From the NCBI RefSeq assembly GCF_056746865.1, contig NZ_CM163382.1: a stretch of 64,000 bases of DNA. One strand, given 5' to 3'. The notes under the pieces are model-generated. The model was not told where the DNA came from. It saw only the letters and a program-made list of their open reading frames with translations, and did not search any database. Position numbers and translations under genes: made by a program. Positions 23,465-58,448 of this stretch are shown here, one piece after another (positions within the stretch are counted from its first letter, which is position 1; each line of letters starts with the position of its first letter).

Positions 23465-23606
23465 GATGATATCCTTAACTAAAGGTGTCATTTTGATATC
23501 CTCACAATACGCTTGTTCGGCGGAGTAAGAACCCGGATAACAATGATGATGATCATCAGTTATTTTGACGATCTGCCTGAAGGTGAAGATTTATAAGGAG
23601 TTGTCG

Positions 23607-24380
23607 ATGTCAGTACCTCTCATTCTGACCATACTGGCGGGGGCAGCCACGTTTATTGGCGCGTTTCTCGGCGTTCTCGGGCAAAAACCCTCGAACCGCT
23701 TACTGGCGTTTTCGCTAGGATTTGCGGCGGGGATCATGTTGCTCATCTCATTAATGGAAATGCTTCCTGCCGCACTAGCAGCTGAAGGAATGTCGCCTGT
23801 GTTGGGTTATGGAATGTTTATCTTCGGTCTGCTTGGCTATTTTGGCCTGGACCGCATGTTGCCACATGCGCATCCGCAGGATTTAATGCAAAAATCGGTG
23901 CAGCCGTTGCCAAAATCGATCAAGCGCACAGCCATTCTGCTCACTCTCGGCATCAGTCTGCATAACTTCCCGGAAGGGATTGCCACCTTTGTCACTGCGA
24001 GCAGCAACCTGGAGCTGGGCTTTGGCATCGCACTGGCCGTTGCGTTACACAATATTCCTGAAGGTCTGGCGGTTGCAGGCCCGGTTTACGCGGCAACGGG
24101 GTCTAAACGCACCGCGATTCTGTGGGCGGGGATTTCTGGACTGGCAGAAATTCTTGGTGGTGTGCTGGCGTGGTTAATCCTCGGTAGCATGATTTCCCCG
24201 GTGGTCATGGCGGCAATCATGGCGGCGGTTGCAGGAATTATGGTGGCGCTCTCGGTTGATGAATTAATGCCGCTCGCCAAAGAGATTGACCCTAATAATA
24301 ACCCCAGCTATGGCGTACTATGTGGAATGTCAGTGATGGGATTCAGTTTAGTGCTGCTACAAACGGCGGGAATTGGTTAA
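23607..24380 (+). CDS. zupT: Zinc transporter ZupT (ZIP family)
   Basis: ORF trimmed to [18 protein letters not shown] with upstream TAAGGAG RBS; 257 aa. Confidence 0.9.
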
Positions 24381-24389
24381 AAACAACAT

Positions 24390-24420
24390 CAGAAGTTGTC
24401 CAGCGCATGGACAACTTCTG
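24390..24420. terminator. Stem-loop between convergent zupT and small membrane ORF
   Basis: Inverted repeat CAGAAGTTGTCCA-GCGCA-TGGACAACTTCTG. Confidence 0.5.
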
Positions 24421-24437
24421 CCAGCTTCACGAAAGCC

Positions 24438-24608
24438 TTATTCTACCTTTTCGGCTGTCTCTTCTCTCGTACTGTTTAAGTATTTGTTCCGCGCTTCAAG
24501 CAGTGCGTCTCTGTCCTGGCGAAACGCCCGACAATAACGTTTCAAATGCAGGAAATAACCCACCACAACCAGAGCAATCAATACAATCCAGTACCAGGCG
24601 ATAAACAT
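24438..24608 (-). CDS. Small single-TM membrane protein (56 aa)
   Basis: ATG at 24608 preceded by AAGGGTAAAAGG RBS; MFIAWYWIVLIALVVVGYFL hydrophobic helix then charged tail; track ORF begins at an upstream TTG. Confidence 0.45.
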   Translation of the reverse strand: MFIAWYWIVLIALVVVGYFLHLKRYCRAFRQDRDALLEARNKYLNSTREETAEKVE

Positions 24609-24869
24609 CCTTTTACCCTTAATATTTAACAATACTAAACATTTAGCGCATAAATTTCACATATCCTTTTTCGGATATATTCATATGGTCGCATAATAAC
24701 GGAACAATTATATGATTTTGATCATAATGAAAAAGAATGCCTGATATTAATGAAATTTTCTCATAGAAAGAGAAGCGGAATTAACATCTTGCATAGCAGG
24801 GAAAAATAAAAACCGAAGCCTGCTACAACTTCGGTTTCTTGATTAAGGCAGTAAATTAAGCAGCGGTTT

Positions 24870-25523
24870 TCAGCTGGCTTTACGCTCATGTGCCTGACGA
24901 TAAGCCACCAGGTCTTCAATAGTCACGAGCGCCATATTGTGTTTATTGGCAAACTCAATGCACTCTGGTGCACGCGCCATCGTGCCATCGTCATTAGTCA
25001 GCTCACACAGCACACCAGCCGGTTTAAAGCCTGCCAGCGTCATCAGATCAATAGTCGCTTCAGTATGGCCGCCACGCGTCAGTACACCACCAGCCTGAGC
25101 GCGAAGTGGGAAAACGTGGCCCGGGCGATTCAGATCAGAAGGTTTTGCGTCATCGGCAATCGCTGCGCGAACGGTCGTAATACGGTCAGCGGCAGAAACA
25201 CCGGTAGTCACACCTTCAGCCGCTTCAATGGTCACGGTAAAACCGGTGCCATAGGCGCTGGTGTTATTTTCTACCATCATTGGCAGATCAAGTTGTTTAC
25301 GGCGATCTTCAGTAATGCACAGGCAAACAATACCGCTACCGTGGCGAATGGTCAGCGCCATCTGCTCAACGGTCATGGTTTCTGCCGGGAAGATCATATC
25401 GCCTTCGTTTTCACGGTCTTCATCATCAAGCACCATTACACCGCGTCCTTCACGCAGCGCAGCCAGTGCATTTTCAACACGTTCGAAAGGCGTACCAAAA
25501 GAGGAAAGTAGCGTCTGATTCAT
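24870..25523 (-). CDS. ribB: 3,4-dihydroxy-2-butanone 4-phosphate synthase
   Basis: 217 aa; [45 protein letters not shown]. Confidence 0.95.
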
Positions 25524-25569
25524 GGTAAAAAAACCTCACTAAAATTATGGTTACCAGAATCAGGGCAGT

Positions 25570-25790
25570 CTTAGGAGTGGCGGCATATAGCCAAAATAAC
25601 GTGAGCGGGTCCATGCCCGACAGAATCGTTACTCTCTCCCATCCGGACTCTAACCGTCGGCCCCGGAATTACACCGGATCTGCTGTCCTTTGAGTTCGCA
25701 CCCAAAGCGCTCGCGGGCTTTCAACTGAGTTGATTTACCGCCGGTGGGGAATTTCGCCCCGCCCTGAGAATAAGCGGATTCACTATAACG
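25570..25790 (-). ncRNA. sroG: FMN riboswitch (RFN element, sroG) in ribB 5' leader
   Basis: Minus-strand sequence contains conserved aptamer blocks CAGATCCGGTGTAATTCCGGGGCCGACGGTTAGAGTCCGGATGGGAGAGAGTAACG upstream of ribB. Confidence 0.8.
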
Positions 25791-25896
25791 CTAATGATTA
25801 GCGCCAGCAACGCATAGCTTCACATAATTCTGGTTTATGACTTACCCTTATCGCACTACAATGGCACTCAACACCTATCAGTACAGGGAAACTACA

Positions 25897-26196
25897 ATGA
25901 TTGACCCGAAAAAAATTGAGCAAATCGCTCGCCAGGTTCACGAATCAATGCCTAAAGGAATCAGGGAGTTCGGGGAAGATGTGGAGAAAAAAATCCGCCA
26001 AACCCTACAAGCGCAACTGACGCGTCTCGATCTGGTGAGCCGCGAAGAATTCGACGTACAGACGCAAGTCCTGTTACGGACTCGTGAGAAACTGGCATTA
26101 CTGGAGCAGCGCATCAGTGAACTGGAAGCGCGCAATAATTCGGTAGCAGATCTTCAATCTCCTCCGGCTATCCCGCCTATTGATAAAGCAGAATAA
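25897..26196 (+). CDS. ubiK: Ubiquinone biosynthesis accessory factor UbiK (YqiC)
   Basis: ORF trimmed to [21 protein letters not shown]; coiled-coil small protein. Confidence 0.85.
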
Positions 26197-26204
26197 AGCA
26201 ACAC

Positions 26205-26226
26205 AAAAACGGGCCAGACGGCCCGT
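26205..26226. terminator. Stem-loop between convergent ubiK and glgS
   Basis: CGGGCC-AGAC-GGCCCG flanked by A5 / T-rich on minus strand. Confidence 0.5.
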
Positions 26227-26230
26227 AATA

Positions 26231-26431
26231 TCAGTGTTCTAATTCAAGTTCTCTGGTTTGCATCATCTGTTGGCAATACCAGGCATAACGTGCGCAAAAC
26301 CAGGTTCTATGTTCTTCATCCATGTTACCAGTAACGGCCAGAATATCGACCGGGCGACCTTCTGCGTGCATTCTGGCAAAACTACGCGCCAGGAAATCGA
26401 AATTATTTAAAGAATTAAGACTATGATCCAT
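26231..26431 (-). CDS. glgS: Surface composition regulator GlgS
   Basis: 66 aa; [33 protein letters not shown]. Confidence 0.9.
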
Positions 26432-26699
26432 AAGCACATCCTCCGGTTATCGCATACCTTTTAAGGCCATATGCTTTTTCTGATTTCAGTATTCCCCAAT
26501 CAGTGTAGTGCCTTTAAACATAACGTGCGTAAATATATTGTCCCCGATCACACTTTTTAGTGAAAAATAAAAAACCATATTAAAAGACTTTCTCTTCCAG
26601 AACTTCTCTAACATGTGTTATTATTAACAAAGATAAATGTAAGCAAGGAAACTATCCTAAAGTAAATATTGCGTCACTAAATGGACATTGGAGTGACAT

Positions 26700-27329
26700 A
26701 TGATTTTATTCGCCGACTATAACACCCCTTATCTTTTCGCTATTTCCTTTGTACTGTTGATCGGCCTTTTAGAAATTTTTGCGCTTATCTGCGGTCATAT
26801 GCTCTCCGGTGCTCTTGATGCACATCTTGACCATTATGATTCCATAACCACAGGTCATATTAGCCAGGCACTTCATTATCTCAATATCGGAAGATTGCCA
26901 GCTCTCGTCGTTCTCTGCTTACTGGCTGGTTTTTTTGGTCTTATTGGCATCCTGTTGCAGCATACCTGCATCATGGTCTGGCAATCACCACTCTCGAACC
27001 TGTTCGTGGTTCCTGTCAGTTTACTGTTTACGATTATTGCGGTGCATTATACCGGTAAAATAGTTGCGCCCTGGATTCCACGCGACCATAGTTCAGCTAT
27101 TACAGAAGAAGAATATATTGGTAGCATGGCGTTAATTACCGGACATCAAGCGACTTCAGGTAATCCCTGCGAAGGAAAACTCACCGATCAATTTGGCCAA
27201 ATACATTATTTACTACTGGAGCCTGAAGAAGGAAAAATTTTCACTAAAGGAGACAAAGTGTTAATTATTTGCCGACTTTCTGCAACGCGATATTTGGCGG
27301 AAAACAATCCCTGGCCCCAAATATTGTAA
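26700..27329 (+). CDS. yqiJ: NfeD-like inner membrane protein YqiJ
   Basis: 209 aa; membrane N-terminal half plus soluble C-terminal OB-like domain; upstream of SPFH gene. Confidence 0.8.
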
Positions 27330-27355
27330 TTTATTAATCAAAAGGAAATTTAATA

Positions 27356-29017
27356 ATGGATGATATTGTTAATTCTGTGCCCTCCTGGATGTTTACCGCA
27401 ATTATTGCCGTATGCATTCTGTTTATTATTGGAATTATTTTCGCCAGGCTCTATCGTCGCGCTTCGGCAGAGCAAGCTTTTGTTCGTACTGGTTTAGGTG
27501 GGCAAAAAGTGGTAATGAGCGGTGGCGCAATCGTGATGCCGATCTTTCATGAAATAATCCCCATCAATATGAATACCCTGAAGCTGGAAGTCAGCCGCTC
27601 AACCATTGATAGCCTGATTACGAAAGATCGTATGCGCGTCGATGTCGTGGTCGCTTTCTTTGTGCGGGTAAAACCTTCAGTTGAAGGGATTGCCACCGCC
27701 GCCCAGACGCTGGGACAACGCACCCTGTCGCCTGAAGACTTACGTATGTTGGTTGAAGATAAATTTGTCGATGCCCTCCGTGCAACAGCTGCACAAATGA
27801 CCATGCATGAGTTACAGGATACCCGCGAGAACTTCGTGCAGGGAGTACAAAATACCGTAGCTGAAGATCTGTCGAAAAACGGCCTGGAACTGGAAAGCGT
27901 TTCACTTACCAACTTTAACCAGACGTCGAAAGAACATTTCAATCCTAACAACGCCTTTGACGCCGAAGGTTTAACCAAGCTGACGCAGGAGACGGAGCGC
28001 CGTCGTCGCGAACGTAACGAAGTTGAACAGGATGTAGAAGTTGCGGTGCGTGAGAAAAACCGTGATGCGCTTTCGCGCAAGCTGGAGATTGAACAACAAG
28101 AAGCGTTTATGACGCTTGAGCAGGAGCAGCAGGTTAAAACCCGTACCGCTGAGCAGAATGCGAAAATTGCGGCTTTTGAGGCCGAGCGTCGTCGGGAAGC
28201 AGAGCAGACGCGAATTCTGGCTGAACGACAGATTCAGGAAACGGAAATCGACCGCGAACAGGCCGTCCGTTCCAGAAAAGTTGAAGCTGAACGTGAAGTT
28301 CGCATTAAAGAGATCGAACAGCAGCAGGTCACCGAAATCGCCAACCAGACGAAATCGATCGCTATTGCCGCCAAATCGGAACAGCAGTCACAAGCGGAAG
28401 CGCGTGCCAACCTTGCACTTGCAGAAGCGGTAAGCGCCCAGCAAAACGTTGAAACCACTCGCCAGACCGCAGAAGCCGATCGTGCTAAACAAGTTGCCCT
28501 AATCGCTGCCGCGCAGGACGCGGAAACCAAAGCAGTCGAACTGACCGTCCGGGCGAAAGCTGAAAAAGAAGCCGCAGAGATGCAGGCGGCGGCAATCGTT
28601 GAGTTAGCCGAAGCTACGCGTAAAAAGGGTCTGGCGGAAGCAGAAGCGCAACGTGCGCTGAACGACGCTATCAACGTACTTTCTGACGAGCAAACCAGCC
28701 TTAAATTCAAACTGGCGCTATTACAATCATTACCTGCGGTAATAGAGAAATCCGTTGAGCCGATGAAGTCCATTGACGGCATCAAGATTATTCAGGTCGA
28801 TGGATTAAACCGAGGTGGCGCTGCGGGGAATGCGGCATCAGGCAGCGTTAGTGGCGGAAACCTGGCAGAACAGGCATTGTCTGCCGCCCTTTCTTACCGC
28901 ACACAGGCACCACTGATTGACTCCTTGCTCAATGAAATCGGTGTTTCTGGCGGCTCGCTGGCGGCATTGACTTCACCCTTAACATCAACAACTCCCGTCG
29001 AAGAAAAAACAGAGTAA
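27356..29017 (+). CDS. yqiK: SPFH/band-7 (flotillin-like) protein YqiK
   Basis: 553 aa; N-terminal TM, SPFH domain then long charged coiled-coil (EQ/AE/K rich). Confidence 0.85.
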   Translation: MDDIVNSVPSWMFTAIIAVCILFIIGIIFARLYRRASAEQAFVRTGLGGQKVVMSGGAIVMPIFHEIIPINMNTLKLEVSRSTIDSLITKDRMRVDVVVAFFVRVKPSVEGIATAAQTLGQRTLSPEDLRMLVEDKFVDALRATAAQMTMHELQDTRENFVQGVQNTVAEDLSKNGLELESVSLTNFNQTSKEHFNPNNAFDAEGLTKLTQETERRRRERNEVEQDVEVAVREKNRDALSRKLEIEQQEAFMTLEQEQQVKTRTAEQNAKIAAFEAERRREAEQTRILAERQIQETEIDREQAVRSRKVEAEREVRIKEIEQQQVTEIANQTKSIAIAAKSEQQSQAEARANLALAEAVSAQQNVETTRQTAEADRAKQVALIAAAQDAETKAVELTVRAKAEKEAAEMQAAAIVELAEATRKKGLAEAEAQRALNDAINVLSDEQTSLKFKLALLQSLPAVIEKSVEPMKSIDGIKIIQVDGLNRGGAAGNAASGSVSGGNLAEQALSAALSYRTQAPLIDSLLNEIGVSGGSLAALTSPLTSTTPVEEKTE

Positions 29018-29204: not shown

Positions 29205-29350
29205 CTGAAACGGGAAAGCCCCTCCCGAAGAAGGGGCCTTATAGAAGGAAAGGGTTATGATGAAGCTCGTCATCATACTGATTGTGTTGTTACTAGTAAG
29301 TTTCCAGGCTTATTAACAACCAATTCAGAGGGGGGAGAAATCCTCCCTTA
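29205..29350 (-). ncRNA. sibD: Sib antisense RNA (antitoxin to Ibs), copy 1; boundaries approximate
   Basis: Antisense to ibs ORF; GC hairpin GCCCCT-CCCGAAGA-AGGGGC at 29217-29240 fits a minus-strand terminator; boundaries inferred. Confidence 0.5.
29257..29316 (+). CDS. ibsD: Ibs-family type I toxin (19 aa hydrophobic peptide MMKLVIILIVLLLVSFQAY)
   Basis: ATG ATG AAG CTC GTC ATC ATA CTG... TAA; matches Ibs toxin family; located between yqiK and hldE as ibsD/ibsE are in E. coli. Confidence 0.7.
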   Translation: MMKLVIILIVLLLVSFQAY

Positions 29351-29582
29351 CCCTTGTTCCTTTACTTTAGGTTGAAAAAAAATCAGCGTCAAGAAGGTTT
29401 CTCTATCCCACATCCCTGGCCCAAAAAGCCGGGGATTTTTTATATCTGCGTTCCGCTAAAAGGTGCAAATGATCAGGCTGTTGCAGCATTTTGCGTGACG
29501 GCTCGGGGAAGGCAAAACTGCATCAGGGAAAGCATTGCGCGGGGTCTGGCGCTCATCAACAATCGGGGAGTCAGCAAGGGGC

Positions 29583-29727
29583 TGAAACGGGAAAGCCCCT
29601 CCCGAAGAAGGGGCCTTGTATAAGGAAAGGGTTATGATGAAGCTGGTCATCATACTGATTGTGTTGTTACTCGTAAGTTTCGCAGCTTATTAACAGCCAA
29701 TCAGAGGGGGGAGAAATCCTCCCTCAC
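29583..29727 (-). ncRNA. sibE: Sib antisense RNA, copy 2; boundaries approximate
   Basis: Antisense to second ibs ORF; same hairpin structure as copy 1. Confidence 0.5.
29634..29693 (+). CDS. ibsE: Ibs-family type I toxin (MMKLVIILIVLLLVSFAAY)
   Basis: Second copy of 19-codon hydrophobic ORF; differs from copy 1 by Q17A. Confidence 0.7.
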   Translation: MMKLVIILIVLLLVSFAAY

Positions 29728-29812
29728 CCTTGTTCCTTTACTTTAGGTTGAAAAAAAAACAGCGTCAATAGGCCTGCCAGGTTCGAAGCGAGATCTGTGA
29801 ACCGCTTTCCGG

Positions 29813-49878: not shown

Positions 49879-50003
49879 ATTTACTCCTTTCTAACATCAC
49901 CAGGAAAAGTATAACGGATTGAAAATACATTGTTTATAAAAACAGCAGGCGCGCGGTAATGGCTGGATTGCGACACGGAGTTACTTTATAATCCGCTACC
50001 ATG

Positions 50004-50078
50004 GCCCCTTAGCTCAGTGGTTAGAGCAGGCGACTCATAATCGCTTGGTCGTTGGTTCAAACCCAACAGGGGCCACCA
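50004..50078 (+). tRNA. ileX: tRNA-Ile (anticodon CAU; lysidine-modified Ile2 type)
   Basis: GGCCCCTTAGCTCAGTGGTTAGAGCAGGCGACTCATAATCGCTTGGTCGTTGGTTCAAACCCAACAGGGGCCACCA; cloverleaf with CAT anticodon in loop CTCATAA; encoded CCA. Confidence 0.9.
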
Positions 50079-58076: not shown

Positions 58077-58293
58077 CAGCTTTTCCTTACAGAGGGTGAA
58101 TAAAAAAGCCGGTACCCACAAATGTGGATACCGGCAGGTACAAAACAGCATGGTCAGATAAAGTGGTTTTTCCCGGACATAAATGCTTCCCCTCTCTCAT
58201 CCGCCAGAGAAGTATCAGTCCGTTGTGTGCAATTCCGTTCTGCATGATGAAGAGATTCAACTGCCTTTTCGCAGGCCATTAACCACTATAAAC

Positions 58294-58329
58294 GATCGAT
58301 AGTAACGATCGATACCTGTTTTATTGATC
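58294..58329. promoter_or_regulatory. Three clustered Dam GATC sites (Ag43 phase-variation switch / OxyR operator)
   Basis: GATC at 58294, 58307 and 58326 within 36 bp (AACGATCGATAGTAACGATCGATACCTGTTTTATTGATCG) ~220 bp upstream of Ag43 start. Confidence 0.7.
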
Positions 58330-58448
58330 GTTTTATTCTATTGATTGCAAGGCGGTCACGCAAGAGAAACAGGAGGATCATGAGGTGTTTGTGTCATGTT
58401 TTCAGTTGGTTAACGCAATGTAATCAGGCATTTCCCCTGGCAGACTGT

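Follow-up and report, generated by a model that had tools for sequence, protein, structure and literature searches.

The ribB gene of Escherichia coli K-12 is preceded by an FMN riboswitch, also known as sroG, which lies upstream of ribB and divergent from ubiK and through which riboflavin synthesis in E. coli is placed under feedback control. An aptamer of the same family exerts the same negative feedback on riboflavin synthesis at ribD (ribDEAHT) of Bacillus subtilis (PMC11571811).

For the K-12 leader, FMN-dependent protection of the P1 and sequestering stems from RNase H was demonstrated on a sequence identical to the one described below; binding of FMN was found to raise the accessibility of the region 184-193, and the pauses of RNA polymerase at 175/181 and at 247-249 were shown to bound the FMN sensing window (PMC11571811). 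Roseoflavin competes in the photoaffinity labelling of the K-12 ribB riboswitch (PMC9204756). Removal of 223 bp from the leader derepresses ribB, and the culture supernatant becomes yellow, a visible sign of flavin overproduction (PMC9885008). The transcriptional control of ribB is lost in a rho R66S mutant, the Rho termination score being 3.1 (PMC5499598), and ribocil-C modulates Rho termination on the ribB template in a minimal purified system with purified Rho (PMC10085680). As a target of antibacterials the ribB riboswitch has been validated (roseoflavin, ribocil), and it serves as a model of sensing during transcription and of riboswitches coupled to Rho.

The element described herein is located in a stretch of 64,000 nucleotides of contig NZ_CM163382.1 (assembly GCF_056746865.1), hereafter the window, which is a part of an E. 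coli chromosome. With high confidence it is the E. coli ribB FMN riboswitch, catalogued also as SroG, working as an OFF switch at two levels. The general importance of this riboswitch has already been established for this exact sequence and nothing new is added to it; the element is already known in full, and the coordinates are the sole refinement. The identity of the aptamer, the alternative pairings and their conservation, the absence of an intrinsic terminator and the identity of the leader with that of K-12 were computed in this work, and the binding of FMN, the pause sites, the translational repression and the Rho dependence are taken from the literature on the identical K-12 sequence.

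The aptamer and its chromosomal setting

A preliminary description of this region had read conserved blocks of an RFN aptamer on the minus strand upstream of ribB, and had named a scan with the Rfam model RF00050 as the check. The scan was strongly positive and bears out that reading: a full-length match to RF00050 (FMN riboswitch) was found at 25627..25775 (minus strand), with 120.9 bits against a gathering score of 66.2, covering positions 1-138 of the 138 of the model, and ribB adjoins it downstream on the same strand. The E-value was 6e-29 in a permissive scan of 3.5 kb (24000..27500), in which sub-threshold matches were included, and 1.1e-27 for the whole window, in which the match was found again at gathering thresholds. 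Canonical pairs occupy 27 of the 28 consensus base pairs of RF00050. Among 111 other FMN aptamers from the matches listed, 63 columns show a conservation of 90% or more; the window has the consensus base in every one of them, 21 of these columns having been fixed by the search pattern. A chance origin of the match is excluded. The same 149 nt are annotated by RefSeq as "riboswitch / FMN riboswitch" in E. coli genomes; the element had rightly been called a known one.

Three further Rfam matches were discarded. AdoCbl-II, with 22.3 bits below its threshold of 36.5, lies over the FMN aptamer and was regarded as a partial resemblance due to chance; STnc240 (29.1 bits against 55), also below threshold, lies on the terminator hairpin of ribB and was likewise taken as chance; a mir-999 match below threshold was considered to be noise.

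Of 5426 complete E. coli genomes, 5425 contain the leader, and a query of 451 nt across it was 100% identical to many E. coli chromosomes. One complete genome lacks the leader, some have two copies, and one copy is plasmid-borne. From +1 to +266 the sequence is identical to that of K-12 MG1655, and the published experiments were therefore done on this very transcribed leader; the published K-12 numbering of P1, anti*-P1, the pauses 175/181 and the sequestering stem maps exactly onto the window. When the comparison is extended from -40 to +266 (306 nt), a single difference appears at -29 (25804), in the promoter spacer, with G here and C in K-12 MG1655, the K-12 base being common to Ec-U5, AR_0077 and Escherichia albertii. 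Among the E. coli alleles retrieved, the most divergent ones, like E. albertii, have their substitutions in the variable hairpin loops and the platform spacers, and none was found in P1, in the switch segment or in the start-region strand.

The divergent gene upstream of ribB is ubiK. The gene order in the window is zupT, yqiD, ribB, then ubiK, glgS, yqiJ and yqiK. The surroundings of the ribB-ubiK pair (23565-26440) differ from strain to strain, by which the riboswitch itself is unaffected. In K-12 ubiK is followed by ygiL and further fimbrial genes, whereas in the window glgS comes directly after it. In strains ATCC 11775 and SK1144 pilus, chaperone and usher genes stand directly after ribB; none such is present in the window. 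Between zupT and ribB, at the position of the 56-aa YqiD of K-12 (b4756), there is an open reading frame of 64 aa (24438-24632, minus strand) for which no NCBIfam match was obtained.

Other RNA elements were recorded along the window. Downstream of yqiK there are two tandem full-length matches to Sib RNA (RF00113), at 29242-29392 and 29619-29768 (minus strand), with 142.5 and 150.2 bits, respectively. Sib RNAs are the antitoxins of the Ibs type I toxin-antitoxin pairs. A match to IS102 RNA (RF00124; 74 bits) lies at 58095-58331 (minus strand) and a tRNA gene (72 bits) at 50003-50075 (plus strand).

Layout of the leader and its alternative pairings

The leader numbering is that of Eschbach et al. 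2024 (PMC11571811), RNA position n corresponding to window coordinate 25776 - n. Only one register fits the published numbering, with C, G and U at C175, G176 and U181 and with perfectly complementary anti*-P1 strands at 141-149 and 175-183, and +1 was placed at 25775 because no other register satisfies both. The elements of the transcription unit are as follows:

25805..25810, minus strand: TTGCTG, putative sigma-70 -35 hexamer of the ribB promoter (from the sequence)
25782..25787, minus strand: TATAGT, putative -10 hexamer (from the sequence and the spacing to +1)
25775, minus strand: probable transcription start +1 (G), from the numbering of PMC11571811; first base of the Rfam match
25627..25775, minus strand: FMN aptamer (RFN element), helices P1-P6, RNA 1-149 (RF00050, pairs, covariation)
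25534..25537, minus strand: Shine-Dalgarno sequence GAGG, RNA 239-242, 10 nt upstream of the AUG (sequence, folds)
24870..25523, minus strand: ribB, the regulated gene, 3,4-dihydroxy-2-butanone-4-phosphate synthase, 217 aa (TIGR00506, RefSeq)
24808..24839, minus strand: intrinsic terminator of the ribB transcription unit, a 13-bp stem followed by a T run (terminator scan)

The consensus promoter scan reported none upstream of the aptamer; TTGCTG-17-TATAGT reaches 8 of 12 positions, which is below its threshold, and TTGCTG, 17 nt upstream of TATAGT, agrees with TTGACA at 3 of 6 positions only. The promoter was assigned by eye together with the published +1 register, the end of TATAGT being 7 nt from the presumed start, and TTGCTG-17-TATAGT is a plausible promoter of ribB. 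The regulated gene is RibB by its TIGR00506 match, which scores 287.7 bits where the cut-off is 177.45.

Between the end of the aptamer and the ribB AUG (RNA 253-255), on the same strand, lie 103 nt, and RNA 150-252 forms the expression platform. The long non-coding leader, which the riboswitch had been expected to explain, is thus accounted for, its 252 nt being made up of the 149-nt aptamer and the 103-nt platform. The switch function of the platform extends into codon 3 of ribB (25515). The interval initially delimited (25570..25790) contains the full aptamer match, the -10 element and the first half of the platform, but it misses the functional 3' half, 25566..25515; the whole switch is longer and runs from about 25810, in the promoter, to 25515. 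A leader peptide was also considered. The candidate, an open reading frame of 46 aa (25474..25614, minus strand) that starts within the platform and, in another frame, overlaps the start of ribB, was rejected, as it has no Shine-Dalgarno sequence and its frame or stop is broken in Enterobacter.

The strands that take part in the alternative pairings are:

25766..25773, minus strand: P1 5' strand, UUAUUCUC, RNA 3-10 (Rfam alignment, motif positions)
25629..25636, minus strand: P1 3' strand, GAGAGUAA, RNA 140-147 (Rfam alignment, motif positions)
25593..25601, minus strand: anti*-P1 3' strand, CGUUAUUUU, RNA 175-183 (folds, complementarity to RNA 141-149)
25551..25566, minus strand: switch segment, GCCCUGAUUCUGGUAA, RNA 210-225 (pairing, conservation)
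25515..25528, minus strand: sequestering-stem 3' strand, UUACC-AUG-AAU-CAG, RNA 248-261, spanning the start codon of ribB together with codons 2 and 3

The switch segment GCCCUGAUUCUGGUAA has two mutually exclusive partners: in the ON state it is the 3' strand of the anti-P1 helix, and in the OFF state it supplies the 5' strand of the sequestering stem. When no FMN is bound, the anti-P1 helix takes up RNA 3-7 and 9-15; in it UUAUU (3-7) faces GGUAA (221-225) and UCAGGGC (9-15; 25761..25767) faces GCCCUGA (210-216; 25560..25566, both on the minus strand), all of the pairs being canonical. The anti*-P1 helix, described in PMC11571811, joins CGUUAUUUU to a 5' strand AGAGUAACG (RNA 141-149; 25627..25635), which when FMN is absent includes a part of the P1 3' strand; here too every pair is canonical, and the helix is present in the unconstrained minimum-free-energy folds. 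CGUUAUUUU coincides with the RNA polymerase pause sites 175/181 published in PMC11571811.

With the aptamer enforced, ViennaRNA predicted a sequestering helix of 13 bp between CUGAUUCUGGUAA (213-225) and UUACCA·U·GAAUCAG (248-261), in which the U of the AUG is bulged and the Shine-Dalgarno GAGG lies within the inner part of the hairpin. The start codon through codon 3 of ribB, AUGAAUCAG (25515..25523), is thereby included in the helix, which is also formed in unconstrained folds. When the ON constraints (both anti-helices) were imposed, the AUG was predicted to be unpaired with a probability of 0.59 instead of 0.35, and the ribosome footprint with one of 0.57 instead of 0.37. No gain in accessibility was predicted by ViennaRNA for the Shine-Dalgarno sequence in the ON model (0.16 against 0.21), since a CCUC early in the coding sequence is available for pairing with GAGG.

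The unconstrained fold of the whole leader (-88.1 kcal/mol, against -80.3 for the ON model) already includes the sequestering stem; the free fold thus differs from the ON model, and the switch would therefore be kinetic (co-transcriptional), as the literature proposes. The minimum-free-energy fold of the whole leader was no better than that of shuffled sequences (z -0.57) and did not reproduce the aptamer, and the identity of the riboswitch is not given by thermodynamic folding alone. The duplex-energy z-scores of the sequestering, anti-P1 and anti*-P1 helices against dinucleotide shuffles ranged from about +1 to -2.8 and have little power, and they were replaced by a test of positional overlap and by a pair-by-pair tabulation.

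Covariation and conservation across species

An exact-pattern scan with a conserved block of the aptamer through a genome collection of 100,044 species gave at least 120 loci. The 111 distinct aptamers among the matches listed were aligned with that of the window (112 in all), and the Rfam structure of the window was projected onto the alignment. Paired bases filled 92.0% of the cells, against 38-58% when the partners were slid by 1-3 columns; compensatory changes were observed in 18 of the 28 pairs, and none of 500 shuffles reached the observed values. The search pattern itself fixed P2 and the 5' sides of two helices, and the invariance of these parts is uninformative. The six-helix fold of the aptamer is supported by this covariation.

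An aptamer-ribB arrangement was recognized at no fewer than 23 loci of other species, where 170-380 nt separate the pattern match from the start of the ribB homologue downstream. The platforms of 16 of these (E. albertii, Citrobacter, two Enterobacter, two Aeromonas, Rodentibacter, Shewanella, four Vibrio and four metagenome-assembled genomes) were compared with that of the window, which gives 17 leaders. CCCUGAU is present in the platform of every one of them, and the longer CCCUGAUUCUGG in 15. The aptamer 5' end and the start region each have a best duplex partner, and in 15 of the 17 leaders these two partners share 6 nt or more of the conserved motif. The 11-bp core of the sequestering helix was likewise intact in 15 leaders. 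Its variation consists of a single compensatory replacement, GGUAA/UUACC to GGAAA/UUUCC, and of a single codon change, AAU to GAU, that is wobble-preserving, and its support is conservation rather than real covariation, because the helix is nearly invariant.

The first codons of ribB follow the same pattern. Codon 2 is AAU in 16 of the 17 leaders and codon 3 is CAG in 16, both being kept in 15, synonymous sites included, while one Vibrio has the synonymous AAC and CAA further on, at codons 4-5. These counts point to a constraint at the RNA level on the first codons of ribB, by which the sequestering helix would constrain the N-terminal MNQ of the enzyme.

Control of ribB and comparison with known systems

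On these pairings and on the literature cited above the following course of events is proposed. Transcription would start at about 25775, and the first 149 nt would fold as the six-helix FMN aptamer. If FMN is bound while RNA polymerase is still within the leader, P1 would close (25773..25766 with 25636..25629), leaving GCCCUGAUUCUGGUAA (25566..25551) free to pair with UUACC-AUG-AAU-CAG (25528..25515). The resulting helix would bury the start codon and the inner hairpin that contains the Shine-Dalgarno sequence, and the initiation of translation would be blocked; in the same OFF conformation the C-rich stretch of the platform would be single-stranded, and Rho would terminate transcription in the leader or early in ribB. 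When FMN is absent, CGUUAUUUU would capture the P1 3' strand in anti*-P1, and the aptamer 5' end would combine with the switch segment in anti-P1, so that the sequestering stem could not form and ribB would be both transcribed and translated (ON).

The stretch in which Rho may load is:

25546..25605, minus strand: C-rich, G-poor stretch of the platform, RNA 171-230, candidate Rho-loading (rut-like) region (composition)

RNA 171-230 holds more C than G, most markedly at 191-220 (12 C and 5 G), a composition that makes the stretch a candidate rut site. For RNA 184-212 the predicted unpaired probability is somewhat higher in the OFF state (0.59) than in the ON state (0.44), in agreement with the published exposure of 184-193 (PMC11571811).

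The switch could instead be purely translational, the drop in ribB mRNA being an indirect effect of the exposure of untranslated mRNA to Rho, as for thiM. The conserved helix aims at the AUG and codons 2-3, which favours this account, the rut-like region of the ribB leader is purely an argument from composition, and indirect Rho control through the inhibition of translation has been documented for another E. coli riboswitch (PMC5499598). However, ribocil-C alters the efficiency of Rho termination on the ribB template without ribosomes (PMC10085680), ribB is classed explicitly as a case of direct control (PMC5499598), and it is the ligand-bound state that is the more accessible one, at RNA 184-212 by prediction and at 184-193 as reported (PMC11571811). 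A purely translational switch is accordingly considered improbable, although it is the best placed of the alternatives.

Somewhat less probable again is that the leader, once terminated or processed (SroG, about 150-250 nt), has a function in trans, for example as a small RNA that acts by base pairing or as one that buffers FMN. Catalogues list the leader by the small RNA name sroG, which is in use in engineering and probing papers, and Rho termination in the OFF state would yield a fragment of the SroG type. Vogel et al., in 2003, are said to have first detected SroG as a stable short transcript. Against such a role, the literature consulted gave no evidence of a trans target of SroG, the switch in cis fully explains the conservation of the leader, and the substitutions within the species are confined to variable loops. 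That codons 2-3 of ribB are frozen across Gammaproteobacteria is a smaller point than a trans function of SroG, and a better supported one.

A switch of the B. subtilis ribD type, in which FMN lets an intrinsic terminator hairpin form and transcription stops free of Rho, is very unlikely: the ribD and ribB leaders do share one aptamer family, and a permissive terminator scan found a weak hairpin with a U-run at about +178-182 in some Enterobacter and Citrobacter leaders, but in the window neither of two scans found an intrinsic terminator, or a terminator-like site, between the aptamer and the AUG (25627 to 25523), the U-run 178-183 is the anti*-P1 strand and a pause site with only a weak stem before it, the partner in the conserved platform helix is the start codon and not a U-tract, and the loss of ribB control in the rho mutant (PMC5499598) argues against an intrinsic terminator.

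The dual-level OFF switch can finally be set beside the related systems. In the ribB leaders of Vibrio, Aeromonas, Shewanella, Pasteurellaceae, Enterobacter, Citrobacter and E. albertii the aptamer is followed by the same GCCCUGAUUCUGGU, the switch motif whose conservation in front of ribB extends over Enterobacterales, Aeromonas, Pasteurellaceae, Shewanella and Vibrio. In the other gammaproteobacterial leaders the pairing partner of GCCCUGAUUCUGGU is UCAGGGC, from the aptamer 5' end, or else ACC-AUG-AAU-CAG, whereas the platform between aptamer and switch motif varies in sequence and in length (66-218 nt), and the anti*-P1 complementarity was weaker or unclear outside the enterics in a duplex test. 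Ligand-dependent Rho termination, inside a leader or early in the coding sequence, is known also for the Mg2+ leader of Salmonella mgtA and for the TPP riboswitch of E. coli thiM (PMC5499598, PMC10085680), which differ from ribB in ligand and aptamer; moreover, Rho control of thiM is indirect, via translation, whereas that of ribB was reported to be direct (PMC5499598). Compared with ribDEAHT of B. subtilis, the difference lies in the expression platform, which is there an intrinsic terminator/antiterminator and in the window a helix that sequesters the start codon, together with Rho.
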